A DNA stretch of 64,000 nucleotides, taken from Chiloscyllium plagiosum (Eukaryota). The stretch covers positions 11,224,441 through 11,288,440 of the forward strand of contig NC_057735.1 in assembly GCF_004010195.1 (NCBI RefSeq), given 5' to 3'. The translations under genes were made by a program, and so were the position numbers. Each line of letters begins with the position of its first letter. Position 1 is the first letter of the stretch. The notes beneath the pieces were generated by a model. The model worked only from the letters and a program-made list of their open reading frames with translations. It did no database searches and was not told the origin of the DNA. This document shows positions 8,701 through 63,446 of this stretch, in pieces.

Positions 8701-11700
8701 TGGACTGGGTGCTGGCAGGTGGGACTAGATTGGGTTGGGATATCTGATCGGCATGGACGGGTTTGAGCGAAGGGTCTGTTTCCATGCTGTACATCTCTAT
8801 GACTCTAAATGTTATAATTGTACCAGCCTCTACCACTTCCCCTGGCAGCTCATTCCATACACGCACCACCCTCAGTGTGAAAACATTGCCCCTCAGGTTC
8901 CTCTTATATCTTTCCCCTCTCAACCTAAACCTATGACCTCTCGTTCTGGACTCCCCCACCCCAGGGAAAAGACGTTGTCTATTTACCATATCCATGCCCC
9001 TCATGATTTTATAAATCTCTATAAGGTTACCCCGCAGATTCCGATGCTTCAGGGAAAAATACCCCCAGCCTATTCAGCCTCTCCCGATACCTCAAATCCT
9101 TCAACCCAACAAGACCTTTGTAAACATTTTCTGAAGGTGAAAGTGAGGGCTGCAGATGCTGGAGATCAGTGCTGAAAATGTGTTGATGGAAAAGTGCAGC
9201 AGGTCAGGCAGCATCCAAGGAGCAGGAGAGTTGAAAATGTGTTGCTGGAAAAGCGCAGCAGGTCAGGCAGCATCCAAGGAACAGGAGAGCTGAAAATGTG
9301 TGCTGGAAAAGCGCAGCAGGTCAGGCAGCATCCAAGGAACAGGAGAAAGCGCAGCAGGTCAGGCAGCATCCAAGGAACAGGAGACTGAAGAAGGGCTTAT
9401 GCCCGAAACGTCGATTCTCCTGTTCCTTGTATGCTGCCTGACCTGCTGTGCTTTTCCAGCAATACATTTTCAGCAAACATTTTCTGAAGCCTTCCAAGTT
9501 TCACAATATCCTTCCGATAGGAAGGAGACCAAAATTGCACACAATATTCCAAAAGTGGCCTAACTAATATCCTGTTCAGCCACAACATAACCTCCCAACT
9601 CCGATACTCAATGCTCTGACCAATAAAGGAAAGCATACCAAACACCTTCTTCACGGCCCTATCTACCTATGACTCTACTTTCAAGGAGATATGAACCTGC
9701 TCTCCAAGGTTTCTTTGTTCAGCAATACCCTCCTGGACCTTACCATTAGGTGTATTAGTCCTGCTCTGATTTGCCTTTCCAAAATGCAACACCTCACACT
9801 AAAATCCATCTGCCAATCCCTCGCCCATTGGCCCATCTGATCAAGATCCCATTGTACCCGGAGCTAACCTTCTTTGTTGTACAGTAAAGCTGCAATTTTG
9901 TTGTCACCTGCAACATATAATTACTTACTGTAGCTCCTATGTTCACACACAAATGATTTAGTGAATGACAATGTGGAGTGAAATGCCAGACGACATGGTA
10001 GATGAAGGTACAGTTACAGTATTTAAAACGCATTTGAATAGGTGCATGAATAAGAAATGTTTAGAGAGACATGGGCCAAACGTAGATAAGTGGGACTAGT
10101 ATATTTTGGGAAACATGTTTGGCACTGACGTGTTGAACCGAAGGGTCTATTTCCGTGCTTACTATGACTCTAACATTTTCAGTAGAATTAGCCCACTTAC
10201 AGGTGTCATTGTTACCAGGGAAGGGGAAATAATGCAAAACTCCATGATATCAAAAGGGCTTTTCCCCAAGTAATGAGGTTCCACTTGTCCATGAGGTTCC
10301 CTTGGGTAACTACAAGTGAGAAGGAGACTAATCTGAACATTATTCCCTTGTTTCAACAGGTGAACAATATACTTGTGCTGTTTCTTCAACAACATCACCA
10401 AGAACTGCACATTCCCCAATTATAACTGGAAGTTTCTCGACCAGTCAAAACCAGTCCCCAGGAAAGAATTCCCATGAAACGTATGATATTCTCTGCTTTG
10501 ATTCAGTGTGTGAGATTAACAATATTTTTTAGCCAAACAAGTGAAAGGCTTTTGTTATTTTGGAAATGAAAATGGTGCTGGGTTTATATTGGGCTCCTGA
10601 GTTAGTTCCATATTAAAGGTTCAATTGTTTTTGAAAAGCAAAAATGGAAAATAATTGTTTCTATTTTGTTGGCCCTCAGATGGCATTGCTCAGCTTCATT
10701 ACTTCACCATTAAACTACATCATGTGTGATGTCCCCTGCTTGCCAAACGTACCTTGCTGCTGTCACCTTCAGTGACGTTTCAGGATAGTGTCATTCCTGC
10801 TGGTGAAAAGGAAGGTTTGAAGTGATACCTCTGCACAGGGACAGATAGCTTGCAGGGTTAGGCTTTAGCCTGAGTTCATCAGCCTGAGCTGTTGGAAATA
10901 AGCTGCAGGAACTGTAAGTGTGATATAAACACTGAGGAAATAATTCTTGGAAGTTACAAAGGTGATGAAGAGAAAGTGCCACTTAAGTGTCAGTCAGAAA
11001 TGGAGAATATTGGAAACGCAGTGTGATTTAGTCCACATTTGGGCAGAAATAGCTCAGTGCAGAATTCTTCACAATTCTAGTCCACACCCGAAACAACCCC
11101 CAGATACTGTCTGATTATACCTTTCCAGCAACTTCTGTTTTTCATTCAGGTCTCCAGCACATGTTATTCATTTGTTTTTAAACAGATAATACTCTGTGAT
11201 TCAAAAAGCATTGAAAGTTTATACATTTTATTTGCGGTTATATCTGCATATCTGTTGTCTCAGTTTGTATAAATGAAGATCTTCGGAATCCATTCTCAAA
11301 TCTGTTGTTGCTAATTTTCGGTGACCATCTAGTGTTTTTTTATTCCATTTTTACCAAGTGAAATTTACCACATCTGCAAAAGGCTCTGTGGTGGTACACT
11401 CACCTTCTATGCCAGAGATTGTGAGTTCTCTTCCTCTTCAGAAACATGGGCACATTATCAAGGCTGAGTCTCTAGTGCAGTACTGAGGGAATGCCATGCT
11501 GTTGTGGTACAATCTTCCCAGTGTGATCAATCCAGGCCCCATCTCCCCGTCTCAGGGGAATGTGACAGATCTCATGGTGATATTTGTGGAAGAGCAGGGC
11601 TGTTCTCCCTGGAGACTTGGGCAGTGCCTCTCCCTTACCAATTCCAAATTATATGATCAGTCATCTGATTATTGTTTGTTGGAACATACTGTGTGCAAAG

Positions 11701-14700
11701 TGAATACTATGTTTGCCAATACAACATTTAACACAAGTATTTCACTTCCTACATTGTTTTTGGATGTCCTGAGGTCATAGAAGTCATTTTTAATATATTT
11801 CTTGCATCAATTAGCCAAGAATCGATTGTGAACAAACTTTTCTGTTTTCAATATCACAGTCTGATTTATATTTTGGTCGGTGTACTGGGGGCCATTCTGT
11901 TTGTTATTGCTCTACTTTTGTACCTGAGGCAAATCAAAAAGGGTGAGTTTTTATTTCTCTTCAATTATTTTGTTATATCTCAGCAGCTTATAGTTGCAAA
12001 TAAAAAGAATTTCAGGGTTGGATTTTCTAATGGCTAGATAGCTGATATTCCAGTACAGTCAGGAGCTGCTCAGAATCATAGAGTCATAGAGATGTACAGC
12101 ATGGAAACAGACCCTTCGGTCCAACCCGTCCATGCCAATCAGATATCCCAACCCAATCTAGTCCCACCTGCCAGCACCCGGCCCTTATCCCTCCAAACCT
12201 TTCCTATTCATATACCCATCTAAATGCTCTTAAATGTTGCAGTTGTCCTAGCCTCTACCACATCCTCTGGCAGCTCATGTACCATCCTCTGCATGAAAAA
12301 CTGGCCCCTTGGGTCTCTTTCATATCTTTCCCCTCTCACCCTAAACCTATGTCCTCCAGTTCTGGACTCCCACACCCCAGGTAAAAGATTTTGTCTATTT
12401 ACCCTATCCATGCCCCTCAAGATTTTGTAAACCTCTATCAGGTCACCCCTCAGCCTCTGGATGCTCTAGAGAAAACAGCCCCAGCCTGTTCAGCCTCTCC
12501 CTATAGCTCAAATCCTCCAACCCTGGCAACATCTTTGTAAATCTTATCTGAACGGTTTCAAGTTTTGCAACATCTTTCCGATAGGAAGGAGACCAGAATT
12601 GCACGCAATATTCCAACAGTGGCTTAACCAATGTCCTGTACAGCAGCAACATGACCTCCCAACTCCTATACTCAATACTCTGACCAATAAAGGAAAGCAT
12701 ACCAAACGTCTTCTTCACTATCCTATCCACCTGCGACTCCACTTTCAAGGAGCTATGAACCTGCAATCCTCTTTGTTCAGCAACACTCCCTAGGACCTTA
12801 CCATTAAGTGTATAAGTCCTGCTAAGATTTGCTTTCCAAAAATTCAGTACCTCACATTTATCTAAATTAAACTCCATCTGCCACTTCTCAGCTCATTGGC
12901 CGTTACACCTCCAATTTTGGTGTCATCTGCAAACTTACTAACTGTACCTCTTATGCTCGTATCCAAATCATTTATGTAAATGACAAAAAGTAGAGAGCCC
13001 AGCACCGATTCTTGTGTCACTCCACTGGTCACAGGCCTCCAGTCTGAAAAACATCCCACCACCTCCACACTCTGTCTTCTACCTTTGATCCAGTTCTGTA
13101 TCCAAATGGCTTGTTCTCCCTCCGTTCAGTGAGATCTAACTTTGCTAACCAATCTTCCATGGGGAACCTTGTCAAAAGCCTGACTGAACTCCATATAGAT
13201 CACATTTACTGCTCTGCCCTCATCAGTCTTCTTTGTTACTTCTTCAAAACATTTAATCAAGGTCGTGAGACATGATTTTCCACGCATAAAGCCATGTTGA
13301 CTTTCCCTTATCATTACTTGCCTTTCCAAATACATGTACATTCTGTCCCTCAGGATTCCCTCCAACAACTTGCCCAACACTGACGTCAGGCTCACTGGTC
13401 TATAGTTCCCTGACTTGTCCTTACCTCCTTTCTTGAACAATGGCACCATGTTAGGCAACCTCCAGTCTTCTGGCACCTTACCTGTGACTATCGATGACAC
13501 AAATATTTCAGTAACAGGCCCAGCAATCACTTTCCTAGCTTCCCGCAGAGTTCTAGGGTACACCTAATCAGGTCCTGGGGATTTATCCACTTTTATGCAT
13601 TTCAAGCCATCTAGCGCTTCCTCATCTGTAATATGGACATTTTTCAAGCTGTCCCTACATTCTATATCTTCCATATCCTTTTCCACAGTAAACACTAATG
13701 CAAAATACTTGTTTAGTATCTTCCACATCTCCTGTGGCTCCACATGTGGGAATTCTGCAGAATCTCCATCCTAACAGACGCCTGGAAAATTGAATGTTCC
13801 ACTTGGCAATTCCTCAACACCTGGGGCCACTCATTAAATTCAGAGATTACTCATAACTTTCTGTAAAATTGTTATTCAGTAAAAGTTTGACAAATAAATG
13901 CATGGTCTCACTTTGGAGTAATGATTCCACTAACCCCATACTTCCTTTACATACCCCGAACTATACATTCCCAAGATTCCTTCTACCCCTCAGACTCATG
14001 CTGGGAATCATGGGTGCAATAGTGATGGATGTAGTTCAGTACATGATTATGCACACTGCAAGGAGAAAGTGAGGACTGCAGATGCTGGAGATCAGAGCTG
14101 AAAAATGTGTTGCTGGAAAAGCGCAGCAGGTCAGGCAGCATCAAAGGAGCAGGAGAATCAACGTTTCGGGCATAAGCCCTCTTATGCCCGAAACATCGTT
14201 TCTCCTGCTCCTTTGATGCTGCGTGACCTGCTGTGCTTTTCCAGCAACACATTTTTCAGCTATGCACACTGCAATATGTGCTCAGTTTGAATATTTTAAA
14301 CATTCAGCATTCCTGTTAAAGTTGTTTGAACAACTGTATTGTAATGTTTCAGGGACATTCTGCATCATGTGTCATCAGAGAACTAAGAGTCTTAATGATG
14401 AACAGGTAAGAATAATAAATATTAACTTGCTGAATATTGTTTAGAAATTTGAAGAACATAGGATTTACAGCACAGAAATTAGCTATTTGGCCCATCTGCG
14501 ACATACTGGCTCTTTTGCTCCACACAAGACATCTCCCATGACTCTTCATCTAACCTTTCCAATTCCCGCTTCCAACTCCTGCTTTGTTTACGTGCTGATC
14601 AAATTATCTCTTAAATTTCACAATGCATCTTCACTCAATTCCCCCCTAGGAAAGAAAAAGGAGAGAGTTCAAAAGAAACCTTGTCATCTGAAGAGTGTCA

Positions 14701-15860: not shown

Positions 15861-16228
15861 GAAAACCATGATGAGATATTTATACTGTTCATTTTTCCTT
15901 CTTACTTTGTATTGAATTTTGTCTATTGTAAGCTGTTATTGTAAGTTTGGTTTCCTCAGCAGATGGAATCAATTTAACTTTTATTCCCAAGTCTGGGTCA
16001 CTTGCATTAAATAACAAGAGCAGAAGTCTAAAAACCAAGGGGTTTGGCAACCCAATCAAGTCCCCATCTCCTGTCTCCCCTCACTCTAACCTCTGAGTCA
16101 CAGATTCCAGGTTCAAGTTTAAGTTTTTGTTCCACTCTCATCAGGACTAAGCCACAAAAAAACCAAACTTCAAAAGGGAATATCAATATAAACAGCATGA
16201 GAAGTGAGTGCAAATTGTTTGGATAATG

Positions 16229-16405
16229 TTAAAAATGACACAACACCAGGTTATAGTCCAACAGGTTTAATTGGGGCTACCAGCTGATGAAGGAGAGACG
16301 CTCCGAAAGCTAGTGTGCTTCCAATTAAACCTGTTGGACTATAACATGGTGTTGTGTCATTTTTAACTTTGTACACCCCAGTCCAACACCGGCATCTCCA
16401 AATCA
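16229..16405. mobile_element. Penelope-derived fold-back insertion (family A) with hammerhead motif at 16281-16315 (+)
   Basis: 13-bp TSD tgtttggataatg (16216-16228 and 16406-16418); empty site in gene C flank at about 51188; CTGATGA-A-GGAG…CTCC-GAAA-GCTA-GTG. Confidence 0.85.
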
Positions 16406-17842
16406 TGTTTGGATAATGGTTGACATGGAGATACAGCAGAAGCTGTTAACCAGCGAGCTTAACTGATTAAACTCAGACCAGCCAAGTAAGCTCTGATTGG
16501 TTAAGGCTGCAATGATTAGCAAAGTGCATGAGTCTCTCCTCAATTAAAGAGATGAGATGTACAGACATATTCATTTTTCCTGGAAAGAACAGGGCCCTCA
16601 GTAGTAATATATGTAATTTCTAGCCTGCACAAATGAATCATACTGCAAGCCCAGTGGATAATCTGAAACTGGTTTCCGGTGTGTTACTGTGCACAGGTGG
16701 GATTGTTCAATATTGTTCATCAGCAGCATCATGTCTAATGTTGGATATGTCACCCTGGGATTACAGTATGGGCTCGTTAACATGATTGGCTCACTGCTGG
16801 CCTGCAGTGTTGTCTGACATAGTCAGCCTACACCCTTGGCATCACAGTAACATTAAAGCTGGTATTCCACAGTGTTTCTGGATTACAACAATTGGGAAAT
16901 GGGACTGGTTGGACATTATTGGGTTGAAGAGAGATTTAACATGTGATTGCTGGAAAAGTGTCAAAGGTCAAGGCAAAATGCTTTTTTTAGCTGTGTACTG
17001 GAACAACAAATAATTTTGGGAAGTAGGCAACTTGAAACTTTTAAAAGAGATTGTATTTCTGGCCTAAATATCTGAACAAACTTGAAGAGAAATCCTCAGT
17101 CTTATCCTGTTGTCCGAATTTATCCCACCCAAAAAAACCCTTTGCAGAGCTGTGTGGTCTTCCCCTCTCTGTGTGTGAATCTGTGTTTGAGATTAAGAGG
17201 ATGTGGTTTAGTTGTTCACTGTTCTGCCAATTGATTTAAAAAAAGGTTTGTTTTAATAAACAAGTTATTTTTGGAGGAGGTCAAAAAAAACAAAAGGAAA
17301 GTCTCTTTTGTTTATAATAACTGTAATAAATAGAAAGAACTAAACCGTTTTAGTGAAAATGTGAAATACTAATGCATTTGGTATTGCTTGTGGAGCAGTG
17401 GGATTTTATTAACTCTACACTCTCCCCATCAGAACCGTAGCTGAGGTAAGAGGCTACACTCCCAAACCTATGGGCCATGATGTAGAGGTGCCAGTGTTGG
17501 ACTGGGGTGGACAAAGTCAGAAGTCACACGACACCAGGTTATAGTGCATCAGGTTTATTGAGATCACAAGCTTTCTGAGCGTTGGTCCTTCAGGTGAAGT
17601 CACCTGACAATGGGGCAGTGCTCTGAAACCTCTGGGCACAATCTTCTCTGCCCAGAGGTGGTAGGCCTGGAGTTAGCAAGTGACCTTTATTAGCTCGGAT
17701 GGTGGGGTACCTAACCCAGTCACTTCTCCACCCTTGATTGAATTTGGATCTCATCAGAAGGTCCAAGCTCCAACAACACCAACCCACCACCAACTGAGAC
17801 CCTTAAGTGCTCATTCAAGCTTCAAGTGCTCTTTCAGCTTCA

Positions 17843-19682: not shown

Positions 19683-20144
19683 AGGATCCCTACAGTGCAG
19701 AAAGAGGCCATTTGGCCCATCTGAAGAACATCCCACCAGACGCAGAACCCCACTCTGTTCCCATAGCCACACATTTCACTTGGCTAACCCACCGAGCCTG
19801 TACATCCCTGAACTCAATGGACAATTTAGCCTGATCATTCAACCCAACCTGAATATCTTTAAAGCTAAAAATCACACAACACCAGGTTACAGTCTGACAA
19901 TTTCATCTGGAAGTGCATGCTTTTGAAGCGCTGCTCCTTCGTCAGGTAGACAGAAGAGTAGGATCGTAGAACATAAAATGTACAGCAAAAGATCTTTAGA
20001 AAGTATGAAGAAACTGTAGCACCTGGAGTAAACCCACACAGACAGGGAGAATGCTCAAAGTACACAGTCACCCAAGACTTGAACTGAACCCAGGGGTTAC
20101 TGGGACTGTGAGGCAGCAGTGCTAACCACTGAGCCACTGTGCTG
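19683..20144 (-). mobile_element. Degenerate HE1-like V-SINE interrupted by a family A fragment (about 19861-19997)
   Basis: tRNA-like head (reverse complement of gtggctcagtggttagcactgctgcctcacag) at the right end, CR1-type tail at the left. Confidence 0.7.
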
Positions 20145-20589
20145 TCCATTTTTGAGAAGTTGAGATGTAAAAAACAAGTTTCCACAGTTGTTGCATGTCT
20201 TGATGTTCATTGTGATTTGACACTCGAAGAAAAATGTGTGAATATTGTCAAGGAGGATGTGTGATGGATAGCCATGGATGTACAAAGAGAGTAAGTGTTA
20301 GTTGCTTTTGTTTGCAAATTGGAGAGAGAGCTGCCCTGGTACAGCACTTGCTGGAGGCTAATGTTGTGGGTCCTGGTCCATTTGAAGGACATTGTTGGAT
20401 GTGGATGGAACAAACAGTGGACAGATGTATCGGGGTCCGGCCTGAGCGGGATGTAAGTTATGAATCACAAAGAGGACAGGTGAAAGGGGAGAGAAGCTTT
20501 ATCGATTAATCTACAGGGAGATTCCAAAGGACCAGAAGAAGAGTTATCAATTACACTGTGCTATAAACTGGAGTTAAAGTTCCTACAGG

Positions 20590-22373
20590 AGGGGGGCACG
20601 AGAAAGGCTTGGCAGAACGGACTAGAGAGAACACAAAGGCATTTTACACTTATGTGAGGAATAAGAGAATGGTCAAAGAAAGAATAGGGCCGATCAGGGA
20701 TAGCATAGGTAACTTGTGTGTGGAGTCTGAGGAGGTAGGGGAAGCCCTAAATGAGTTTTTTGCTTCTGTCTTTACAAAAAAAAATAAACTTGTAGTGAAT
20801 GAAACCTTTGAAGAGCAGGTGTGCATGCTGGAATGGATAGAGACAGAGGAAGCTGATGTGCTAAAAAATTTGTCAAACATTAAGATTGACAAGTCGCCAG
20901 GCCCGGACCAGATTTGTCCTGGGCTGCTTTGGGAAACGAGAAATGCAATTGCTTCGCCACTTGCGAAGATCTTTTCATCCTCGCTCTCCACTGGAGTCGT
21001 ACCTGAGGACTGGAGATGGGCAAATGTAATTCCTCTCTTCAAGAAAGGAAATAGGGAAATCCCCGGCAATTACAGACCAGTAAGTCTCACGTCTGTCGTC
21101 TGCAAGGTGTTAGAAAGGATTCTGAGGGATAGGATTTATGACCATCTGGAAGAGCATGGTTTGATTAAATGCAGTCAACACGGCTTTGTGAGGGGCAGGT
21201 CATGCCTCACAAACCTTATTGAGTTCTTTGAGGATGTGACTAGAAACGTTGATGAGGATCGAGCTATGGATGAGGTGTATATGGACTTCAGCAAGGCATT
21301 TGATAAGGTTCCCCATGGTAGGCTCATTCAGACGGTCAGGAGGAATGGGATACAGGGGAACTTAGCTGTCTGGATACAGAATTGGCTGGTCAACACAAGA
21401 CAGCAAGTGGTAGTAGAAAGAAAATATTCTGCCTGGAAGTCAGTGGTGAGTGGTGTTCCACAGGGCTCTGTCCTTGGGCCTCTACTGTTTGTAATTTTTA
21501 TTAATGACTTGGATGAGGGAATTGAAGGATGGGTCAGCAAGTTTGCAGATGACACAAAGGTTGGAGGAGTCGTTGACAGCATAGAGGGCTGTTGTAGGCT
21601 GCAGCGTGACATTGACAGGATGCAGAGATGGACTGAGAGGTGGCAGATGGAGTTCAACCTAGATAAATGCGAGGTGATGCATTTTGGAAGGTCGAATTTG
21701 AAAGCTGAGTACAGGATTAAGGACAGGATTNNNNNNNNNNNNNNNNNNNNNNNNNNNNNNNNNNNNNNNNNNNNNNNNNNNNNNNNNNNNNNNNNNNNNN
21801 NNNNNNNNNNNNNNNNNNNNNNNNNNNNNNNNNNNNNNNNNNNNNNNNNNNNNNNNNNNNNNNNNNNNNNNNNNNNNNNNNNNNNNNNNNNNNNNNNNNN
21901 NNNNNNNNNNNNNNNNNNGAAGAGGGTTCAGAGGAGGTTTACCAGGATGCTGCCTGGACTTATCTTATGAAGAGAGGTTGACTGAGCTCGGACTTTTTTC
22001 ATTGGAGAAAAGGAGGAGGAAAGGGGACCTAATTGAGGTATACAGATAATGAGAGGCATAGATAGAGTCGATAGCCAGAGACTATTTCCCAGGGCAGAAA
22101 TGGCTAACCCGAGGGGTCATAGTTTTAAGCTGGTTGGAGGAAAGTATAGTGGGGATGTCAGAGGTGGGTTCTTTACACAGAGAGTTGTGAGAGCATGGAA
22201 TGCATTGCCAGCAGCAGTTGTGGAAGCAAGGTCATTGGGGACACTTAAGAGACTGCTCGACATGCATATGGTCACAGACATTTGAGGGTGCATACGTGAG
22301 GATCAGTGGTCGGCACAACATCATGGGCTGAAGGGCCTGTTCTGTGCTGTACTGTTCTATGTTCTATATTCTA
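20590..22373 (+). mobile_element. CR1 LINE ORF2 (RT) plus 3' tail; assembly gap 21731-21918
   Basis: ORF 20609..21970 with KSPGPD, NYRPVSLTS, QHGF, DFSKAFD, GVPQGSVLGP, FADDTK; tail ttctatgttctatattcta. Confidence 0.95.
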
Positions 22374-25043: not shown

Positions 25044-27003
25044 GCTGATACTGGATATGTCAGATCCCAGACATGAACTTAGTTGGATAGATCATAATTT
25101 TTGTTATTTTCAAAGTGATCTTTTACTAAAACCTAAACATGCAATGTTGCAATCTTTGTTTTAATAATAAAACAAACAAAAGTTCATGAACAGCAGAAAT
25201 GAAGATAAAGAAAAAAAAACTCTTTCCTTAATGCACAGATTAAAAAAGCATTAAAAACACATGAGAAATAATGCAGCACACCTTATAGATTAAACAGAAA
25301 TGCAGCTTCATACTGGATTCAGTTGACCCTGGTGTGCAAGACAGCTTATAAACATTGTCATAACTTTAAGAACATCGAGTGCTACAGTTCCAGCAACATC
25401 CAGTCCACTCATTTCCAAAGGAGAGAGCCTTTTCTTTTTTGATATTTCGATGGGCTTGATGTAGTTAAAATTTCAACATATTTACTGGAACTGTAGATAA
25501 CGCTTTCATATTATGATCCTGAATTAGCTTCATTCACCTGATGCAGATTCAATTTTCTTTTCTTAAGGAACTTCAGAATCCTAACTTCATTTTTTTCCCA
25601 CAGACTACATCCCTCTCTCCACTCTGGGATTAATAATAACTTCTTTTTCTACAATTTCATTATTGTAATTTCATTTTCTTAGCAATGCAAATTAGCACGT
25701 CACTGCATGGAAAGATTTCCTAGCACTTCGGTGCTTCATACAAATTTCCTTATACAGTTGTAGAGTCATGGAAGCAGACCTTTTGATCCGACAAACCTCT
25801 TAGCACTGACTGAAAATGAAAGTCAGATTCTGGAATGATCTTGTCTAAGCCCAACGGATAGTTCCCTAGGAACCCTGGGTAACTTACTCTCAGTTGGAAT
25901 TGTTTTGGAGGTGTTGGTATTGGACTGGGGTAAAGAAGATCAAAAATTAGATGACGCCAGGTATAGTCCAAAACGTCTTCAAATAAACCTGTTGGACTAT
26001 AACCTGGTGTCATCTGGTTTTTGACCTTGTTCCCTTGGAATTATAGACATTGTAATTTTTATAAGCTAATTTTTAACTCCACACAGACAACCCATGCCGT
26101 TGAACCAGTCTGCCAGTATTTGCCCGTCTCCATGGCTATCTCAAAACTGCTTCAGAAGGCATCGGGCTGATTTAGTCAGACACTTCTGAGAGTGAAAACA
26201 ATTCATAAAGTTGCTATTATCTTTCCATGGCAATAGGAATGCTCAGTCATGTGACTTCCCCCACAAGCCTTCCACCTCCATGACAAGAATCCACTGGAAA
26301 GGCAATATTTTCTCAAGTTGTGATTGAAGATTGTTTTGCCCAATTGTTTTAAATAAGCTTCAGTATTAACCTTTTTTAACTGGCGACTAAGCTGCAACTG
26401 TTCTCACCACTGGGAACTCTGCTGCCAAGAGGACTGAATCAAGAATCCATCTCGACACAGTTCCTTGGCAATTTACCACCATCTCCATCCCACTACCTGG
26501 AGACTGGTAAAATTTCACCAGTTAATTTTCACTCCATTTAAAGAGATTTTAAAATGATACAAGATGATATAATAATGGAGAATACATGATCAATCATGTC
26601 TCTTAGCACAAGAACTGTTAATATATTTCCCTCTTTTAAAATTGCTATTATCTTACCAGACAATAGGGCTGCTTTCTCCTTAGAGAGGCGGAAGTTGAGA
26701 GTGAGAGTTCACTGGTGGTGGTTTATGCAAAAGTGAGGACTGTAGATACTGGAGCTCAGAGTCAAGATTGAAGTGGTGCTGGAAAAGCACAGCAGGTCAG
26801 GCAGCATCCAAGGAGCAGGAAAATCAACATTGCGGGTAGGAGCCCTTCATCAGGAATCATGAGGGTCAACACACGTCAGACAAGGGGTGAGATTGATAGT
26901 GCCTTATTGCAACCTCAGCAGGTGTGGGAATTGAACTCATGCTGTTGGCATTGCACTACATCAGAGATCATCCTGTCAGCAACTGACCTACAAAATGCTA
27001 TAT

Positions 27004-32857: not shown

Positions 32858-33177
32858 GGAGAAAGTGAGGTCTGCAGATGCTGGAGATCAAAGTTGAAAC
32901 TTTATTGCTGGAACAGCACAGCAGGTCAGGCAGCATCCAGGGAACAGGAGATTCGACGTTTCGGGCACAGGCCCTTCTTCAGGAATGTTCGCAGTAGGTT
33001 GAAATCTTCGAGGAGAAAGTGAGGTCTGCAGATGCTGGAGATCAAAGTTGAAACTTTATTGCTGGAACAGCACAGCAGGTCAGGCAGCAAGAAGAAGGGC
33101 CTGTGCCCGAAACGTCGAATCTCCTGTTCCCTGGATGCTGCCTGACCTGCTGTGCTGTTCCAGCAATAAAGTTTCAA
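32858..33177. mobile_element. Young Penelope-derived element (family B): two direct arms plus one inverted arm
   Basis: 14-bp TSD ctcagtggtgggca (32844-32857 and 33178-33191); arms are essentially identical to one another. Confidence 0.88.
32951..32986 (-). ncRNA. Minimal type-I hammerhead ribozyme (family B), complete
   Basis: Minus strand: AUUC-CUGAAGA-A-GGGC-CUGU-GCCC-GAAA-CGUC^-GAAU. Stem I 4 bp, stem II 4 bp, palindromic ACGU stem III, GUC cleavage triplet. Confidence 0.75.
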
Positions 33178-34387
33178 CTCAGTGGTGGGCAAGTTGTTGG
33201 AGGGAATCCTGAGGGACAGGATGTACATGTATTTGGAAAGGCAAGGACAGATTCAGGATAATCAACATGGCTTTGTGCTTGGGAAATCATGTCTCACATA
33301 TTTGATTGAGTCTTTTGAAGAAGTAACAAAGAAGATTTATGAAGGCAGAGCAGTAGATGTGATCTATATGGACTTCAGTAAGGCGTTCGACAAGGTTCCC
33401 CATGGGAGATTGGTGAGCAAGGTTAGATCTCATAGAACACAGGGAGAACTAGCCAATTTGATACAGAACTGGATCAAAGGTAGAAGACAGAGGGTGGTGG
33501 TGGAGGGTTGTTTTTCAGACTGGAGGCCTGTGACTAGTGGAGTGCCACAAGGATCGATGCTGGGCCCTCTACTTTTTGTCATTTTCATAAATGATTTGGA
33601 TGCGAGCATAAGAGGTACAGTTAGTAAGTTTGCAGATGACACCAAAATTGGAGGTGTAGGGGACAGCGAAGAGGGTTACCTCAGATTACAACAGCATCTT
33701 GACCAGATGGGCCAATGGGCTGAGGATTGGCAGATGGAGTTTAATTCAGATAAATGCGTGGTGCTTCATTATGGGAAAGCAAATCTTAGCAGGACTTATA
33801 CACTTAATGGTAAGGTCCTAGGGAGTGTTGCTGAACAAAGAGACCTCAGAGTGCAGGTTCATAGCTCCTTGAAAGTAGAGTCGCAGGTAGATAGGATAGT
33901 GAAGAAGGTGTTTGGTATGCCTTCCTTTATTGGTCAGAGTATTGAGAACAGGAGTTAGGAGGTCATGTTGCTGCTGTACAGGACATTGGTTAGGCCACTG
34001 TTGAAATATTGCATGCAATTCTGGTCTCCTTCCTATCGGGAAGATGTTGTGAAACCTGAAAGGGTTCGTAAAAGAATTTATAAGGACTTTGCCAGGGTTG
34101 GAGGATCTGAGCTATAGGGAGAGGCTAAACAGGTGGGGGCTGTTTTCCCTGGAGCGTCGGAGGCTGAGGGGTGACCTTATAGAAGTTTACAAAATTATGA
34201 GGGGCATGGATAGAATAAATAGACAAAGTCTTTTCCCTGGGGTCGGGGAGTCCAGAACTAGAGGGCATAGGTTTAGGGTGAGAGGGGAAAGATATAAAAG
34301 AGACCTAAGGGGCAAGTTTTTCACGCGGCATGGACGGGTTGGACCGAAGGGTCTGTTTCCACGCTGTACATCTCTATGACTCTATGG

Positions 34388-34695
34388 CACCTATTGTTAA
34401 AATCAAATTTGAGAATGTAACTTTTTAAAAGTTCTATAATTTACATATAAAGGAATCAAAACTAACTTGGTCATTCGAAATGATGAAAGATTTAAACTAA
34501 ATTTGTTTAATATTACGTTCCATGACACTGCAATCTTGTTGCTATAAATTCTGTGTCTTATAATTGTGCTCCACAACCACCTGATGAAGGAGCAGTGCTT
34601 CGAAAGTTAGTGCTTCCAAATAAACCTGTTGGACTATAACTTGGTGTTGTGTGATTTTTAACTTTGTCCACCCCAGCCCAACACCAGCACCTCCC
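34388..34695. mobile_element. Family A Penelope-like terminal repeat fragment
   Basis: Matches 63125-63440. Confidence 0.75.
34578..34612 (+). ncRNA. Minimal hammerhead ribozyme motif (family A)
   Basis: CAC-CUGAUGA-A-GGAGC-AGU-GCUUC-GAAA-GUUA^-GUG. Confidence 0.6.
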
Positions 34696-35091
34696 CATCA
34701 AGGATATTACAGGACAGCACAGGGGCTGCTGGATCCCCCAGGAATACATTGTCCAGCAGGGGACAGTGACCAGCTCAGTGTCTGGAACATTCCTTTACAT
34801 TTGACAAGGATGAGAAAGGGGATCTCAGGAATATAGTCCCACCAACCTCAGCCTTTCAAATGCTTTAATAAGGATACAGGAGCATCAATGTCCAGGCGAG
34901 GATCCAAACACAAATTATGTTCAAGCTAGGTCACTACCACATCTCTCCAGACAGGGGGAGTTAGAGAGCAATGAATTCAACAAAATCCATTGTTCACAAC
35001 AAGCCGTGAGGTTCCATTGGTGAGGAGAGCTCTCTTGGTTGTCTGGAAGTGAGACCCAGATGAAACTGAATATTTTTTGATGTCTCAATAG

Positions 35092-36295: not shown

Positions 36296-37577
36296 GCGAG
36301 CATCATGGCCTTTACATGAATGATTTTGAGCACTCTAAGTTCCCCATCAATGAGGTGGCCCTGGGTGGAGGGGTTTCGAAGCAGGAGACACAGTTTGAGA
36401 AGAATGGGTTGACCATTTGGGACTGAGATGAGCAGGAATTTCTTCACTCAGAGGGTGATGGTTTGTTGGAATTCTCTGCCCCAGAGAGCTCTTGAGGGAC
36501 CAGCCTTGAGTATATTCAAAACAGAGATCAATAATGTTCTGGGTAATAAAGGTAGGGAGGGACATGGAATTAGTGCAAGAAAAATAGTATTCAGGTAGAA
36601 GATCTGCTCTGATCCAGGTGAATGCTGAATGAGCCTCGAGGGGCTGAATGGCCTACTCTGGTCCTGCCTCATCTCTCTCCATGATGACCTCATGCTGTTA
36701 AATGCTGTCATTGGACCAGCCTCCATCACTTCCTCTGGCAGCTCATTTCATACACACACCCACCATCTGTGCGAAAAAGTTACTCCTCAGGTCCTTTTGA
36801 AATCTTTTCCCTCTCACCTTCAACCTATGCCCTCTAGATCTGGACACTCTCATTGGAGAAAAAGACCTTGGCTGTTCACCCTGTCCATGCCCTCGTTTAA
36901 ACCTTATTGGATAATATAGTCATGTGTCCTAATCTGGAATGAAGACAATGTAAATGCTGTTGGGTAGAGAGACAAGTGAGTTAGTATGTAATAGTTTGAT
37001 TGGATGAAACCTTGTTATCTGTTAAAATAATAAAATATGTTTGTTGCTGTCCAAACGATTTGATCTATTTAGCATTTATTGGTGTGAACAGCTCCCACAC
37101 AGACATTAATAAATATTTTTAAACAACGAAACCTGCGTCTTGTCTGATCTAAAGAGGAAATACAGGGGAGGGTTGGGGCCAATAAGGGCTTTGTAATTCT
37201 CAAAGACATGGGCCTGATGGGAAATTAGGGACATAATGGCTACAGAGAGAGCGAATGAAGAGAAATGATGAGGTGACAAAAGATCATTGAACCCACAGGG
37301 ACAGCAACAATAAAGAGAGAAAGAAGGATCATTCTGTATCACAGATAGAGTCTGTTGTTAATTCACAGAAACACCCCACTGCCTGTGTCTGCAGCGTATG
37401 GAGCACCTTATTGAAGCTACTAATAGTTCTGAAGAATGATCAACGGACCCAAAACAGTAACTCTGCTTTCTCTCCACAGACACAGTCAGGCCTGCTGTGT
37501 TTCTCCAGCAATTTCTGTTTTTGTCACAAAAACATTCAGTTGACACTTCACCAATCCTGATCCAGTTGCTGCACAGT

Positions 37578-37885: not shown

Positions 37886-38502
37886 AATTGTGTAAAATGA
37901 TTGACACCAGATTACAGAGTGCATGTGGAGTCAGTTATTCAGATTTTGGGATGGGGAGGCGAAGAGGGTGGGGGCGAATGTAAAAGTCTATTAATTTGAA
38001 ACCTATTCGGGGCAATTGCATCCACCATGCATCCACTGATTCAGTCCTATCACTGGCATCAAATTACACTTCAACAACAGGTCACTCATTGTCCAGAAAG
38101 AAACATTACAGGTGATGGCCTCAAGCAATCATTGACTACAACATTGTTCACCCTCGGTGTCTCATTAACGAGGCGAATGTAATCAGACAAGCTCATTTTA
38201 AAGTTCCAGTTGGGTTTGGTATTTTGGTAATGCACTATCATGCTATCAGTGGAAGACAGCAATTCTCAGCTGCCACGTTCACACACTGAATTGTAAGTCT
38301 GTGACGACGTTGACTACAATGTGCAATGGTGATTTATTTCTAAAAATGTTTCTGTCAGCAGCAAGCTGTGTGTGAATGACTCATTGTAAATGAACACACA
38401 TTCAGTTTGGGCCCATTCCATTAAACCCTCAAACAGGTTCATGGTCAATGAGGAACATAACTGAGAAACAGGACAGGTCAGGCAGCATTGAAGGAGCAGG
38501 AG

Positions 38503-38538
38503 AATCGACGTTTCGAGCATCAGCCCTTCTTCAGGAAT
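38503..38538 (-). ncRNA. Minimal hammerhead ribozyme motif (family B) within a short repeat fragment
   Basis: Minus strand: AUUC-CUGAAGA-A-GGGC-UGAU-GCUC-GAAA-CGUC^-GAUU. Confidence 0.6.
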
Positions 38539-38945
38539 GAGGCTTGTGGGCAAGGACTGAGAAATAAAGGGGGTGAGCCTGAGGGAAACTCAGCATAACT
38601 CAGGAGTCAAGAAATACTGTATATCACCAAGTGATAAAGCAGGGACATTCACCAACTCTTTTAAAATCCTTAAAAAGCTTATTAGACACTTGGGGTTGAT
38701 CTCCTGCTAAAACTCCAGAGCCTGTGGGGAAAGCCCATTGTGAAACCACAACCCATACCTGCAGACACCCATTGCCTACAGCTCAGTAAAGAGGGAGAAC
38801 TGTGTCACCTGGAGCAATATGTCTGCAGCCACGTTTGCGCAGCCACTGACAGAAATGTTCAGTGGAGATGCTTTCTGGAAAGGCAGGGAGGGGGCAGTTT
38901 TCTTAGAGTCCACATCAGTGTTAATCAACAGGATATTGTGGGTGA

Positions 38946-40786: not shown

Positions 40787-43700
40787 GTGAGTGACCATCT
40801 GAGTTGTATATTCAGATAATCCACACTTGTTGAAATCCACTGTGTTATAAAGTAGAAATGTTTAAATATTTGAAGATACATAATTGGAAAAGGGAGAGCT
40901 TGTGACACAATGGGTAACATTGTTATTGCTGTGACAAATGCTGAGAGTTCAATTCTCACAAAAGTACACTTTTCAAAGGAATGTGTCTTCTCACAAAGCC
41001 AAACAGGTTCATTTTCAACCTACAAATCCTTCCAACATACAGAGAGCAGGACTGGGTGAGATTCCACATCAGTCTTTTCCAATGCACACTTAAAAATCAC
41101 ACAAAACAAAGTTTTAGTCCAGCAGGTTTATTTGGAAGCACTAGCTTTCAGAGCACTGCTCCTTCATCAGGTGAACACAACCAGCTAATGAAGAAGCAGC
41201 TAATGCTTCCAAATAAACCTGTTGAACTATAAACTGGTGTTGTGTGATTTGTCTACCCCAGTCAAACACCGGCACCTCAAAGTCATGGTTATCCAATGCA
41301 GAGTGACACCCTTCACATCACAGCAACTGGCTTCAGGCTGGTGACAAGCTGCAGAAAACAGACACAGCATGGACTTTGTCTGCCCCATGTGACTCTAAAT
41401 ATGGGCGCCATTGAAGCTTAAATGAACAAACATAAAAGTACATGAACAACATCACAAAATGTAATAATTCTACTGAACACTTTATAATCATGCTGCAGAG
41501 TTCCCAAATAATTTAGAGCGGCATAATGAATTATGAATTAAATTAAAAGGGTACCATAACCTTTCTTTTTTGTGTAAAAAAGCAGCACAATTATTTTAAT
41601 TTGACTGAAATTTTCAATTTTCAATACACACTGAAAAGTGTATGAGTAATAAGCCCTCAAACAAAACATTTTGAGTTTGCTTTTATTTCTTTTATTTTTG
41701 AAGATCAATTCATTAAATATCGCTCTGAGGCTCAGTCAAAAAAGGAGCTGGTTGGTTTATATTTCTCTTCACTTCGAAAAGCCTTTTTCCTTTCAGTCTA
41801 ACTTGAATCAAGTTGTTTGCTCTCTTTCAATTCCATTGATTTACATATTACAATGTAACACTGCAATAAAGTTAATGCTCATCATTGCAATCGCTCCATT
41901 AATGATAAAGAAATTTTTGGAAGACTCAAGAATAAAATTCTCAGTGTCGCTTTACCCTAGGCTACAGCTCTGTGAATTCTGTTACATGAAAATCCCCTTA
42001 AATGTTTTGTGGCTCCGGCCCACCAACTTCATGCAGAATATTTCATGGACAGAAATCTGAAACATGCACCTCTCTGTTTTCACAATTCTCTCTCTTTCAA
42101 GGCTTCCTTTTTCCAGTAAGGTCTCTGTCTCCAAACCAGCATCATTTTTAATCATTCACGTATCTCCGTCCCTTTCATCTCAGCTCTCCACCTCTTCACT
42201 TACAATTAAAATCCTTGTTATTTTACTCAAGAATTGTTTGCCACATAAAGGGCAGTTCTCCCAACAAAACTGATGGTCTGGTATTTATTGAAGTAAAGTC
42301 TACCCAGTCATCAACAGGCTTCTCCTCTTCAACACCAGGACGCAATGTGGCAGCAATTTCAACATTTTCTCATGAACCATCTCTCTGGCACAATCAGTAA
42401 ATTGCTTCTGTTATTTTATTATCCATACAATGACAACAATATGTGATTATAAATAATCCTGCCTTTGCTGCCCTCAAGATCCTCCACATTGATCTCTCTC
42501 CCATCGTGAACGGTCCCTTGCTGAACTTTAATTCTCTTCCTTTCCCACTTGAAGCCTCTCATCATCTTGCCTGGGTCACCTGTTGTATCTGCCCCGTTAG
42601 CCCTGAAAATGCAGCCCCTGAGCCCACCATGAGTCTCCACACACTCCCCTCTTCTCCCTGGATGAATCCCTCCTTCTCCGGTCGGAGTAAGGATCCTTCA
42701 GCACCTGTACCCTCCTTCGCACTGATCCCCAGCCGACTCCAACCCAGGCCTGTCACTCAGGCTGCTCTCTGGGGGGGCGGGGGCAACATTTCGATGATGT
42801 CACACACGGTGGAGTCAGAGCCCACTGCGGGCAGCACAAACCCAATTTCAAGATTGTCCCAAAGCTTGACCAGTGGGGTAAGAGAATATCCCGACTGTTT
42901 CAATCATTCCCTGGGAATTCGTAACAGCCTGAGGCTCGGATAAGGGTTTATATTAATGATTACATTCATCATGTACTGGATGGAATGTAGCTGATTAAAA
43001 TGTATCTGTTTGTAATAAGCAATTCTTTCCAGTTAAATCTCTGAAATATTGTCTCCTCATTTTCAGGTGCTTTATGGGCAGAGAAACACGTTACGGGAAT
43101 TTTGGGAAGAACGATCACAATATCTTGTCATTACGAAGCACGGAGGTACCAATCACACATGAAATATTGGTGTCATGGATGGACTCGTCTGTGTCAGGTT
43201 ATAGCAACGACAAATTGGCCAAATGGGAGAATATCAATCACTGATCACAAAACACAAGGAATATTTCTTGTCACAATCACGAATCTTCAATGGAGAGATG
43301 CAGGATGGTACAGATGTGGGATCGAGACTCCTGGCCATGACCTAATGTTTAATGTAAAGCTGCACATTTCTGCTGGTACGTGACTCATTTTCTTTTAAAT
43401 TACTCTCTGCTGATGTGTCTGATCAGTGTTTTATCCAGGAAGAAAAGTGACAAAGTGTTGGGGAATATTTGAATTTTCTCACAGAATAATTGTTTCTTTC
43501 CCACAGAAGCTGTGTCTGTTCCTGGATTTCAATATTTATCCCAACCAACTGTCTCATGTTCTGGGGGTTCAGTGACAGTCTCTTGTGAGTCTACCCAGGG
43601 ATCCCTCCCCATTCACTACACATGGTCTGAGAAGACCCCATCTCAAGATTCAAAGATCTCTTACACCAATAAACTGGATCTACATTGTCAATCCTTCACA

Positions 43701-50657: not shown

Positions 50658-53600
50658 GAAAACCATGATGAGATATTTGTACTGTTCATTTTTCCTTCTT
50701 ACTTTACAATGCAGTTGTATTGAATTTTGCCTGTTGTAAGCTGCCCACACATTTACATTGTCCAACTCCTTAGGATTTGATCCCAACAATTCCATGCTCT
50801 TTCCAGTTTGGTTTCCTCAGCAAATGGAATCAATTTACCTTCAATTCCCAAGTCCGGGTCATTTGTATAAAATAACAAGACTAGAACTCCAAATACCAAG
50901 GTGTTTGTCAACCCAATCAGTCCCCATCTCCCTGTTTCCCCTCTCTAACCTCTGAGTCACAGATTCCAGGTTGGAGCCCCATTCCCAGAGCTAAGTTCAA
51001 AAATCAAACTTGACGTGCTAGCATGGCACTATGGGACCCTAATGATTGTGTGACACAGACCTTGCACATTTTTAAAAAGAGATGCAAAAGTTAAAGTTTT
51101 TGTTCCACTTTCATCAGGACTAAGCCACAAGAAACCAAACTTCAAAAGGGAATATCAATATAAACAGCATGAGAAGGGAGTGCAAATTGTTTGGATAATG
51201 GTTGACATGGAGATGCAGCAGGAACTGTTAACCAGCAAGCTTAACTGATTAAACTCAGACCAGCCAAGTAGGCTCTGATTCGTTCAGGCTGCAATGATTA
51301 GCAAAGTGCATGATTCTCTCCTCAATTAAAGAGGTGAGATGTACGGACATATTCATTTTCCTGGAAAGAACAGGGCCCTCAGTAGTAATATATGTAATTT
51401 CTAGCCTGCACAAATGAATCACACTGCAAGCCCAGTGGATAATCTGAAACTGGGGTTTCCGGTGTGTTTCTGTGCTCAGGTGGAATTGTTCAATATTGTT
51501 CAACAGCAGCATCATGTCTAATGTTGGATATGTCACCCTGGGATTACAGTATGGGCTCGTTAACATGGTTGCCTCACTGCTGGCCTGCAGTGTTGTCTGA
51601 TTTGGGCAGATGTACAGCCTACACACTTGGCATCACAGTAACATTAAAGCTGGTATTCCACAGTGTTTCTGGATTATAACAATTGGGAAATGGGACTGGT
51701 TGGATATTGGGTTGAAGAGGGATTTAACATGTGATTGCTGGAAAAATGTCAAAGGTCAAGTCAAACTGCTTTTTTTGGCTGTGTACTGGAAAAGGAAATA
51801 ATTTTGGGAAGTAGGCAATCTAAAGCTTTTAAAAGAAATTGTATTTGTCTAAATGTCTGAACAAATTTGAAGAGAAATCCTCAGCCTTATCCTGTTGTCT
51901 GAATTCATCTCACCCACAAACCCTCTGCAGAGCTGTGGGCAATGATGTAAAGGTGCCAGTGTTGGACTGGGGTGGACAAAGTCAGAAGTCACACAAACCA
52001 GATTATAGTCAAACAGGTTTACTGAGATCACAAGCTTTTGGAGCAATGGTCCTTCAGGTGAAGTCACCTGATGAAGGAGCAGCGTTCCGAAACCTCTGGG
52101 CACAATCTTCTCTGTCCAGAGGTGGTAGGCATGGGAGGTGGCAAGTGAGCTTTGTTCGCTTGTATGGTGGGGCACCTCACCTAGCCACTTCTCCACCCTG
52201 GGTTGAATTTGTATCACAGCAGGAAAGTCCAAGCTCCAACAACACCAGCCCACCACCAAGTGAGACCCTTAAGTGCCCATTCCGTCCCCAGGTAGGACAC
52301 AAAGAGCGAACGGTGTGTGGGGTGTGGGATGTGTGTCCAATGAGATGTATCTTGTCGAATAAGCAAAATGTATTTATTGCATTTATTGCAACTCTTTAGA
52401 ATTTAGAATAGACTTCACATTTCTTTAAAGAAGGTCGTGAGGTCACCTAGCCTCAGTTGTTACTTCACTCCCTCACCAAGTCATTATGATATATCAGTCA
52501 GTAATGATTCTTGCATTCAATTAAATGTTAACCCTTTCAGACCCTTCCATACCTATATACAACATCTCCCACAGGTTTTGTTTTTGCATCAGTATTATTA
52601 TTATTATGTATTTATTTGCAATTACATTTAGCACTACCCCAGCTCCCTCCAGAATCTTTGACTTGACAAGTTCAGATGCTGAGGAGGGTTTGTTTTGTTA
52701 TTCATTCGTGGGATGTGGGGTTGCTGGCTAGTCAGCATTTATTACCTGTCCCTAGCTGCCCTTGGGATGATGGTGGTGAGCTACCTACTTGAATTACTGC
52801 AGTCCCTGTGCTATAAAAGAGACCCACGATGCCGACAGGAAGGGAATGCCAGGAATTTGACACAGCAACACTGATTGAATGGCGATGATGAGTGGCTTGG
52901 AGGGGAACTTGCAGGTGCTGGTGTTCACATGTATCTGCTGCCCTTGCCCTTGCAGATGGAAGTGGTTGTGAGTTGAGAAGGTGCTGTCTGAAGATCTTTG
53001 GCAAATTTCCAGTGCATCTTGTGGATAGCAAATACTGCTGTGACCGAGTGTTAGTGGTGGAGGGATTGGATGTAAGTGGGCCCTACGTCCTGGATGGTGT
53101 CAAGTTTCTTGAGTGTTGTTGGAGCTGAACACATCCAGGCAAGTGGGGAGCATTCCATCAGATTCCTGCCTTGTGCCTCTGTCTCTAACCAAGTTTGTGC
53201 CTTGTAGCCTATGGGGAGTCAGGAAGTGAGTTAGGGTTACTGCAGTACCTGGAGAAGTGAGGTTGATAAACAGCAGGTCCTGCAAAGCAGAAGGGTCATC
53301 TCAGTTAACCTCGTGGACAGCGGTCTTCCCTGTTTCTTTTCCCTCCACCCGTAGCACCAATGTTTTTGTCTATGTCAGTCTGCATGTGTGTGTGTAGGGA
53401 CTGCATCATAAGGAGGTTAGGGTTTTACTTGGTTGAGTTGAATGTCAACAATTTGTAGTTGTTTATTTGTGGTTAGAATCTATTTATTTGCAATAAATAG
53501 CAACTCCTGTTAAATCTTGTTGAAATAGGCAGGTAATTTGGAGAATTTTTGCATACTTTGATAAAATCTTTCGTTTCTGTGGTGAATCTGGGAGTTGGGA

Positions 53601-61509: not shown

Positions 61510-62045
61510 AGAAACAGAAATGGCTGGAGAAACTCAGCGGGACAGGCAGCATCTCCGCAGAGAAAACAGAGTTAACGTTTCGGGTCCAATATCCTGTCTT
61601 CAGAACTGATTGCTGGGAAAAGATTGCTATGTATGCTGAAGATAGGGGGATGAAAGGAAAGAGTAAATGATCAGTGGAGATGGAGCCCAGAGAGAGAGAG
61701 AGAGAGAGGGGGAGCAGCAGTTGGGCTGACAAAAGGGGTGGATAAGTTGGGCAGAAAGTTGGGCAGAAAGCAAAGCTGCCAATGGGGACTATTAGTGGAT
61801 GAACATGGATTGGCTCTATTGAAAGTGTCACATGTGATGAGGTGTGAAGGTAGGTTAAAGACATGGAAGAAGGTGCTCAATTTTTCTAAAACCAGATGAG
61901 AGAGAGAAGCAACACTAGTGATGTCAATGCATCGGAGGAAAGGTTGTGGGTGGGGTCCAGAGTAGGACTGGAACAAGGAACTTTCACCCCAAAGATTCAG
62001 GCATAACTGGGGTCCTGGGCCACTACCCATGGCAACACCATTGAC
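61510..62045 (-). mobile_element. Penelope-like fragment (RT remnant plus terminal repeat with hammerhead motif 61570-61607), inserted in a CR1 remnant (about 61330-62290)
   Basis: SLFQSYSGPHPQPFLRCID RT remnant; minus strand AGUU-CUGAAGA…ACCC-GAAA-CGUU^-AACU. Confidence 0.75.
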
Positions 62046-62944: not shown

Positions 62945-63446
62945 TACAAAGTTAAAAATCACACAACACCAAGTTATAGTCCAATAGGTTTAATTGGAAA
63001 CACTAGCTTTCGGAGAGCTGCTCCTTCATCAGGTGGTTGTGGAGAGTAAGATCGTAAGACACAGAATTTATAGCAAAAGCTTACAGTGTGGTGTAACTGA
63101 AATTATATCTGGGCTGACATGACACCAATTGTTAAAGTTCACTTGAGAATGTAACTTTTAAAAGTTCTGCGATTCACATTTGAAAGAACTGAAACCAACA
63201 TGGTCATTCTAAAAGATGAAAGACTTAACAAACAATCCAGGTCTTTTTCAATATATAATTTTAGTTACATCACACAGTAAACTTTTGGTATAAATTCTGT
63301 GTCTTATGATCTTACACTCTACAACCACCTGAAGGAGAGCGCTCCGAAAGCTAGTGTTTCCAAATAAACCTGTTGGACTATAACCTGATGTTGTGTGGTT
63401 TTTAACTTTGTACTCCCCAGTCCAACACCAGCATCTCCATATCATG
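62945..63446. mobile_element. Family A element with long inverted arms and two oppositely oriented hammerhead motifs
   Basis: 62946-63100 is the reverse complement of about 63255-63415. Confidence 0.8.
63001..63035 (-). ncRNA. Minimal type-I hammerhead ribozyme (family A), complete
   Basis: Minus strand: CAC-CUGAUGA-A-GGAG-CAGCU-CUCC-GAAA-GCUA^-GUG; palindromic AGCU stem III. Confidence 0.7.

Follow-up and report, generated by a model that had tools for sequence, protein, structure and literature searches.

Minimal hammerhead ribozymes of Penelope-like elements in Chiloscyllium plagiosum: likely uncut templates and U6 joined at the predicted cut

A stretch of 64,000 nucleotides of the Chiloscyllium plagiosum genome (contig NC_057735.1, positions 11,224,441 to 11,288,440 of the forward strand; hereafter, the window) carries scattered copies of a small self-cleaving RNA motif, the minimal hammerhead. 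We propose, with a probability of roughly 0.78, that these motifs are the hammerheads in the pseudo-long terminal repeats (pLTRs) of three families of Penelope-like elements (PLEs), called A, B, and C here, that they sit in short stubs flanked by target-site duplications (TSDs), that the stubs are likely copies of RNA with an uncut 5' end, and that a minority of this RNA is cut in vivo. The minimal hammerhead of Penelope-like pLTRs is already known (Cervera 2014, PMC4209133), and those described here are further members. Five things are seen directly in the DNA: a pLTR downstream of GIY-YIG endonuclease exons, two 3' ends, an asymmetry between inverted arms, a 5' boundary of copies at stem I, and U6 sequence joined at the cut.

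All eight positions at which the initial annotation had placed hammerhead cores (CUGAnGA-N-stem II-GAAA-NN-UH) do carry them. Under a strict descriptor (stem II of at least 3 bp, stem I of at least 3 bp, and 15.2-16.2 paired), the window holds 4 matches, against a chance mean of 0.055 and a maximum of 2 in 200 order-4 Markov simulations. The motifs had been described as Penelope-type minimal type-I hammerheads with a palindromic 4-nt stem III, and the core, the stems, and the pLTR location agree with that description. An extra base lies between 9 and 10.1, which is A in families A, B, and C and U in a fourth family, D, found elsewhere in the genome and not seen in the window. The 10.1-11.1 pair is G-C or G.U in 14 of 15 aligned rows, and the 4-nt palindrome at 15.2-16.2, with no loop 3, is kept in all four families as ACGU or AGCU. 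In family D, the U at the extra position creates an AUG at A9, and stem I varies compensatorily (CCA/UGG, GCA/UGC, UCA/UGA). Comparisons with published systems, here and below, refer to the parts of each source that were available. The type-I core, the extra base at 9/10.1, the G10.1-C11.1 pair, the palindromic 15.2-16.2, and the short stem I are those of the minimal hammerheads of Cervera and De la Pena, which likewise occur as several families per genome, mostly in single truncated copies with some opposite-strand pairs (PMC4209133). The available parts of that paper include no in vivo cleavage evidence, no pile-up of 5' ends, and no cartilaginous fish.

The stems were said to differ among families with pairing kept, and this is borne out: the four families covary. 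One representative each of A, B, C, and D together keep 32 of 32 pairs, a level reached by 0 of 100,000 shuffles in a core-anchored comparison, and all 15 rows, anchored in the same way, keep 112 of 120. Tail homology links families B and C, between which three double changes have left pairing intact. On a MAFFT alignment that shifts family A by one column, the tool count was 80% paired, a value reached in 0 of 500 shuffles, though the tool cautions that relatedness by itself can give such a result. The doubly changed pairs in that alignment number 6, which is not above shuffles (275 of 500).

What kind of element carries these motifs? Between each motif and the 3' end of its repeat lie ~90-125 nt, and the window copies are pLTR stubs of 90-500 bp, either lone or head to head. 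Longer genomic copies of families A and B encode a GIY-YIG (PF01541) endonuclease upstream of the pLTR; their proteins have a CX2-5CxxC linker before the GIY-YIG domain and two cysteines inside it. The C-terminal GIY-YIG, the two cysteines between GIY and YIG, and the CX2-5CxxC linker of B and A resemble those of the Neptune/Nematis endonuclease-positive PLEs (PMC8557442), and the tentative assignment of A and B to that group is made on these linker and GIY-YIG features. The pLTR location is direct for A, B, and D, whereas that of family C rests on the homology of its tail to that of B. Four young-B loci contain fragments of the reverse transcriptase (RT) domain RVT_1; of the two scanned, one scored above and one below the Pfam cut-off. 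Family D, with loci at L272:9724-9767, L277:2550-3138, L241, L249, and L253, is likely a Poseidon-type element; the single copy read (L277) has no linker Zn finger and no Pfam match.

The initial annotation presented these families as a feature of the locus, a framing that does not hold, as they are a genome-wide repeat. In a fixed-coordinate sample of 60 stretches of 10 kb (585,105 called bases), we counted 172 tails (A 44, B 102, C 12, D 14), a density of ~294 per Mb or about one per 3.4 kb, which extrapolates to ~1 million in the 3.56-Gb genome. In a genome sample of descriptor matches, 47 of 50 belong to these families, giving ~285,000 cores by extrapolation. The figures for coelacanth and Xenopus are 4,000-9,000 descriptor matches, obtained by different methods (PMC4209133). 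A 33-nt marker of a young B subfamily matches exactly at 21,684 places genome-wide, and many copies of this subfamily are 100% identical.

The 5' ends of copies bear on the state of the RNA that was copied. Positions are counted from C3 of the core, such that the first base after the cut is +28. The 5' end was placed for 83 of the first 100 listed young-B marker matches (contig C1): 48 begin at -6 to +2, 2 at -30 to -7, 9 further upstream, 11 at +3 to +23, 5 at +24 to +26, none at +27 or +28, and 8 downstream. Among the copies without an inverted partner, 22 of 39 begin at -6 to +2. Genome-wide, 2,447 copies begin at -4 versus 151 with A or G before the cut (of the 21,684 marker matches), two counts that are not strictly comparable because the second excludes T to avoid CpG decay. 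Starts at -10 to +5 in the fixed sample account for 51 of 102 tails in B, 16 of 44 in A, 8 of 12 in C, where copies are old and alignment ends less sure, and 0 of 14 in D. The list of short starts in family A was overstated, in that several copies belong to a separate subfamily whose upstream sequence differs. The boundary is also seen in RNA reads across read-through copies, 114 of which have unrelated flanks before -4. As copies start at stem I and not at the cut, we take the templates to be mostly uncut RNA that ends at the first stem I pair.

Three other explanations of these ends were tried and rejected. Cleaved RNA as the main class of template fails at the 30 loci with A or G before the cut, of which 3 keep the core and many are microhomology joins. 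A fixed 133-nt short interspersed nuclear element (SINE) starting AACATTC proved to be a query-ranking artefact, AACA being target or linker sequence. For an alternative cut after CUC at -5, inspection showed that neither stem III nor stem I could pair.

In both B (TCA+1TTC) and C (TCA+1GTT), the A of a TCA triplet occupies position -4, a context that resembles an initiator (Inr). The Penelope element of Drosophila virilis has an internal promoter with Inr and a downstream promoter element (PMC2377424). An RNA starting at -4 forms stems I and II in its 254-nt minimum-energy structure. In the Poseidon element PAc of Anolis, the open reading frame (ORF) starts at stem II, whereas the long ORF of family B begins ~160 nt downstream and its RNA likely starts at stem I; family D is closer to PAc, with an AUG at A9-U-G10.1 and no 5' pile-up (PMC11167929).

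Could the boundary at -4 instead be a stop of the RT or an RNA processing site, such as a splice or nuclease site? We think this possible but improbable. It would account for the lack of a directly seen RNA start and for the mixed cap signal (both discussed below), an intron of D. virilis ends at helix I (PMC4209133), and family C has CAG at -5 to -3 after a pyrimidine tract. Against it, B and A have no AG there, an RT meets stem I from the 3' side (at ~+31) and not at -4, copies abut the TSD with no common upstream exon, and G exceeds T before -4.

If most templates are uncut, is there any trace of the cut? U6-driven searches (48 Rfam matches, all examined, and 28 exact 3'-end matches) found U6 joined to a pLTR in 7 independent insertions, 6 of family B and 1 of family A, all at loci other than the window. 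In 7 of 7, five T's are followed by the first base after H17. A junction-spanning query, which is biased toward the cut-site join, gave two more in the same register, for a total of 9, the core being unseen in the subfamily of one of them. The joins have no microhomology and a constant T5, the register is the same in B and A despite their different sequence, and at L437 and L473 the same join is present on both inverted arms. Ordinary copies start at the cut position ~1% of the time, so seven of seven is not chance, and the presence of one join on both arms fits a pre-joined RNA template, i.e., ligation before insertion. Mature U6 carries a 2',3'-cyclic phosphate on its terminal U5 and is joined by RtcB only to 5'-OH RNA (PMC6789731). 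Since 5'-OH is the end left by a hammerhead, the joins fit cleavage followed by RtcB-type ligation, and families B and A appear to be catalytically competent in vivo. The record consists of small numbers and of joins in genomic DNA.

The nearest published analogy is the U6/LINE-1 chimeras (Moldovan 2019, PMC6789731), in which the 3' T-run of U6 is likewise joined to 5'-truncated retroelement RNA and then retrotransposed. In those chimeras, an unknown nuclease produces the 5'-OH, and its position varies; in the present pLTR joins, the position is constant and is the scissile bond of a ribozyme. We found no published U6 chimera with a hammerhead or Penelope in a mostly open literature without supplements, and shark families may appear in the supplements of Cervera 2014 and Li 2026. 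A designed T-run pattern matched 13 places, none with U6. In a separate observation, the head of one abundant SINE, which we take to be shark HE1-like, begins within a few bases after more than 20 U6 copies (L418, L425, L426, L430, L435, L438-L443, L448, L452, L455, L467, L469, L471, L502, L503, L505, L507, L511-L513); these may be either chimeras or SINE insertions at U6 T-runs. At L421:1502, U6 is directly adjoined by a tRNA-like sequence, presumably Lys-like.

Might the motif be a conserved promoter or protein-binding fold that is never cut in vivo, with U6 joined by template switching at a favored site? In vitro activity is low (PMC4209133), the Anolis element inserts with no need for cleavage and without reads ending at the site (PMC11167929), and 0 of 83 ordinary copies begin at the cut. 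We nonetheless regard this explanation as very unlikely: ordinary template switches avoid the site, with ~1% of copies there, and all seven U6 joins use it, with no microhomology, a constant T5, like joins on both arms of two insertions, and the same register in B and A.

The 3' ends and the inverted arms speak to how copies are made. The 3' ends fall at two places ~35 nt apart, and complete head-to-head pairs consist of one long and one short arm in 19 of 19 cases. The paired ends and the arm asymmetry fit two internal RT starts with both DNA strands extended, as in PAc, where the two starts likewise bound the tail, an uncut template dominates, and the pLTR carries a hammerhead (PMC11167929). 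An optional 30-40 bp tail at one end, inverted 5'-truncated copies, partial tandems, and variable TSDs are all present, as in the Neptune/Nematis elements (PMC8557442). Tail-to-ORF-start junctions have 372 exact matches genome-wide. Of 34 tandem junctions, 29 were measurable and gave 13 spacer lengths, which differ even within one array and often fall at microhomologies; such variable lengths point to template jumping and to the re-amplification of some units. Loci L126 (G000:C8:24156500-24160000), L094-L097, L113-L115, and L119-L120 carry young-B tandem arrays, made of 2-6 units of 194-320 nt whose hammerheads are complete and whose junctions are mixed; they are natural substrates for testing dimer cleavage. 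The window has no tandem array of at least 2 consecutive units with complete hammerheads of the kind seen at L094-L097 and L126. Several loci (L110, L112, L140/L141, L164) share the same internal inversion junctions, from which it follows that some rearranged non-autonomous forms re-amplify.

Could small circular RNAs, cleaved, ligated, and reverse-transcribed for more than one turn, have produced a non-autonomous, retrozyme-like family? Non-LTR retrozymes, which are proposed as PLE derivatives and reported in one chondrichthyan, have short tandem units and type-I hammerheads from PLE pLTRs (10.64898/2026.07.22.740005). The 372 junctions, arrays of up to 5-6 units, recurring units of 224 nt and 320 nt (6 and 7 of 34 junctions), a 154-nt unit in window copy 32858-33177, and the ligatable 5'-OH indicated by the U6 joins would all be in keeping with this origin. 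We judge it unlikely, because the spread of spacer lengths, often at microhomologies, resembles template jumping, because most copies stop at -4, where a circular RNA would have no end, and because tandem junctions make up ~2% of young copies. A single 154-nt circle as the source was rejected, as the junctions vary. Unlike retrozymes, the window copies do not form arrays in which complete units follow one another, and the genomic arrays have mixed junctions (10.64898/2026.07.22.740005).

Returning to PLE copies made from mostly uncut RNA, we posit a mechanism in which transcription would start at the A of the first stem I base pair, making the hammerhead the 5'-terminal domain of the mRNA. The element protein would prime at two internal sites a little beyond the pLTR, one for each broken DNA strand, and the RT would run ~90-130 nt to the RNA end and then stop, join the other arm, or jump template. 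Cleavage of a minority of the RNA, probably helped by the element protein or by pairing with a second pLTR, would leave 5'-OH RNA that an RtcB-type ligase could join to U6. The capped start at stem I, the twin priming with run-off, the minority cleavage, and the RtcB-type ligation are steps that we infer. More tentatively still, we speculate that the hammerhead, as the first 36 nt of a capped mRNA, acts as a cap-removing switch: protein-assisted cleavage would remove a 32-nt capped leader, so that an mRNA that had been translated and copied would now, with its 5'-OH, be open to RtcB-type ligation (giving U6 chimeras and possibly circles) or to decay. This idea could easily prove wrong.

Several observations weigh against parts of this account. 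There is no peak of RNA starts or ends at -4 or at the cut among 641 and 881 reads of one poly(A) run, a raw-read library that cannot be shown to mark 5' ends. The letters before -4 (G 42, A 47, and T 11 of 100) are a mixed cap signal, and the single untemplated fillers among 86 junctions include 6 G's and 13 A's, 11 of the A's being one recurrent junction; a cap-derived G before -4 is suggestive only. A clear initiator is missing from family A, in which a larger share of copies extends far upstream. In the family-B U6 joins, the last T may be the decayed C of a CpG, an ambiguity of one base; the family-A case is unambiguous. At L432 and L436, U6 is joined in the endonuclease-coding part of a family-B-like element, which means that 5'-OH ends also arise without the ribozyme. 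Lastly, no contiguous intact ORF with RT and endonuclease was seen, both domains occurring only as fragments in family-B loci.

How intact are the window copies themselves? As hammerheads, 1-4 of the eight originally listed count as intact: two are fully so (32951- and 63001-), three are broken (9385+, 16281+, and 61570-), and the other three are altered. The predicted cleavage in 32951- lies between 32955 and 32954. Insertion 32858-33177 is laid out as an inverted short arm, a tail, 21-23 nt of ORF-side sequence, the hammerhead, and a long tail. The plus arm of 62946-63452 has a core near 63329 with a 3-nt deletion. Among the altered copies, 41139- (family A) has G.U at 10.1-11.1, and 38503- (family B) has GAUU for GAAU, giving a U.U mismatch in stem I, together with a G.U in stem II; the stem I U.U is the state of the older, commoner B subfamilies. 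Of the broken copies, 9385+ lacks the 5' strand of stem I, the inverted arm abutting the core; in 16281+, CAG faces GUG and breaks the closing pair of stem I; and in 61570- (family C), stem II is broken by A.C and A.A.

The list of eight was correct as far as it went, and the window carries many more fragments of the same families, e.g., at 14061-14260, 17485-17592, 18730, 19945, 26853, 33091, 37425, 41176, 50047, 52068, 57564, ~59890, and 63329. TSDs of 9-15 bp flank 6 of 11 window insertions checked, and a seventh has a 7-bp match. A search with hammerhead models had been suggested; the Rfam scan of the window returned no hammerhead family match. It did give a mir-15 match at 33052-33173, rejected at 52 bits, below the 57.3 cut-off, as it is a fold-back arm. 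Perfect fold-back hairpins of this kind are common and could give double-stranded RNA or false microRNA annotations. Within 9171-9384, the inverted arm is tandemly repeated as 59-nt and 38-nt units, all in one insertion.

One could imagine that transcripts of the host or the element are cut when intact window copies pair as hammerhead dimers via their palindromic stem III. The palindrome is kept in all four families, a Schistosoma motif has weak in vitro cleavage activity as dimers and trimers (PMC4209133), other parts of the genome have tandem copies, and the U6 joins point to cutting. Nevertheless, we find this proposal unlikely. The window copies are single or head to head, three are without a stem, and most are antisense to the immunoglobulin (Ig) exons of the window; on the Ig-exon (+) strand, the only near-intact copy is 34578+. 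Near-intact pairs of the same family on the same strand lie kilobases apart, the minimum-energy dimers of isolated motifs do not adopt a double-hammerhead fold, and the Anolis element needs its protein to cleave (PMC11167929). Dimerization of the 5' and 3' pLTRs in a full transcript is possible and concerns the active element; dimer cleavage by the lone or fold-back stubs of the window is unlikely, and these stubs are probably passive, inert leftovers.

Table 1. PLE copies and hammerheads in the window (the last five rows were not in the initial annotation).
Feature	Position	Strand	Details
Young family-B composite insertion	32858..33177	-	14-bp TSD (32844-32857, 33178-33191); inside RT remnant of a long interspersed nuclear element (LINE)
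Fully intact minimal hammerhead, young family B	32951..32986	-	Stem I AUUC/GAAU, stem II GGGC/GCCC, ACGU
Family-A head-to-head insertion	62946..63452	both arms	Minus-arm hammerhead 63001-63035 intact, cut after 63004
Family-A head-to-head stub	41090..41290	both arms	9-bp TSD; hammerhead 41139-41173 (-); degenerate plus arm from 41176
Family-A 3' end	34384..34701	+	Hammerhead 34578-34612, non-palindromic AGUU instead of AGCU
Old family-B stub	38474..38542	-	9-bp TSD; hammerhead 38503-38538
Old family-B head-to-head insertion	9135..9475	both arms	Tandem 59-nt arm repeats, 15-bp TSD
Family-A head-to-head stub	16220..16410	both arms	13-bp TSD; motif 16281-16315+
Old family-C copy	61512..61701	-	~75-80% identical to relatives; motif 61570-61607
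Family-B fold-back, joined in loop II, coreless	14061..14260	both arms	One long and one short arm, 14-bp TSD
Family-A head-to-head stub	51942..52095	both arms	Core and stem II at 52068+, without cleavage triplet
Old family-B stub	26730..26857	-	Begins at position -4, degenerate GAAA
Degenerate family-A copy	19859..19991	-	Core at 19945
Degenerate family-C copy	37415..37523	+	

The window as a whole is a cluster of Ig-domain exons on the + strand, which we presume to be a CD300/pIgR-like receptor cluster. It includes a triplicated Ig-exon unit (5370-6214, 29309-30409, and 42869-43883, all +), with a V-set (PF07686) followed by an Ig_3/C17orf99-like domain. LINE RT remnants, presumably CR1-like, lie at 20567-21970, 24312-25076, and 32263-33958, and the young-B insertion interrupts one of them.

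These observations bear on whether the minimal hammerheads of animals cut in vivo and, if so, to what end; the available text of the 2024 study of PAc reports no in vivo trace of cleavage and no reads at the cut (PMC11167929). In two sequence families, U6 lies at the scissile bond, a likely natural trace of germ-line cleavage, and the 5' pile-up locates the ribozyme at the extreme 5' end of the template RNA. The account makes exact predictions, namely, a capped start at -4 and a 5'-OH at +28, and a very young family, many of whose copies are 100% identical, offers a live system. If the cap-removing switch is real, the genome would record both of its states: uncut RNA in ~1 million run-off copies, and cut RNA in a few U6 copies joined at the cleavage site.

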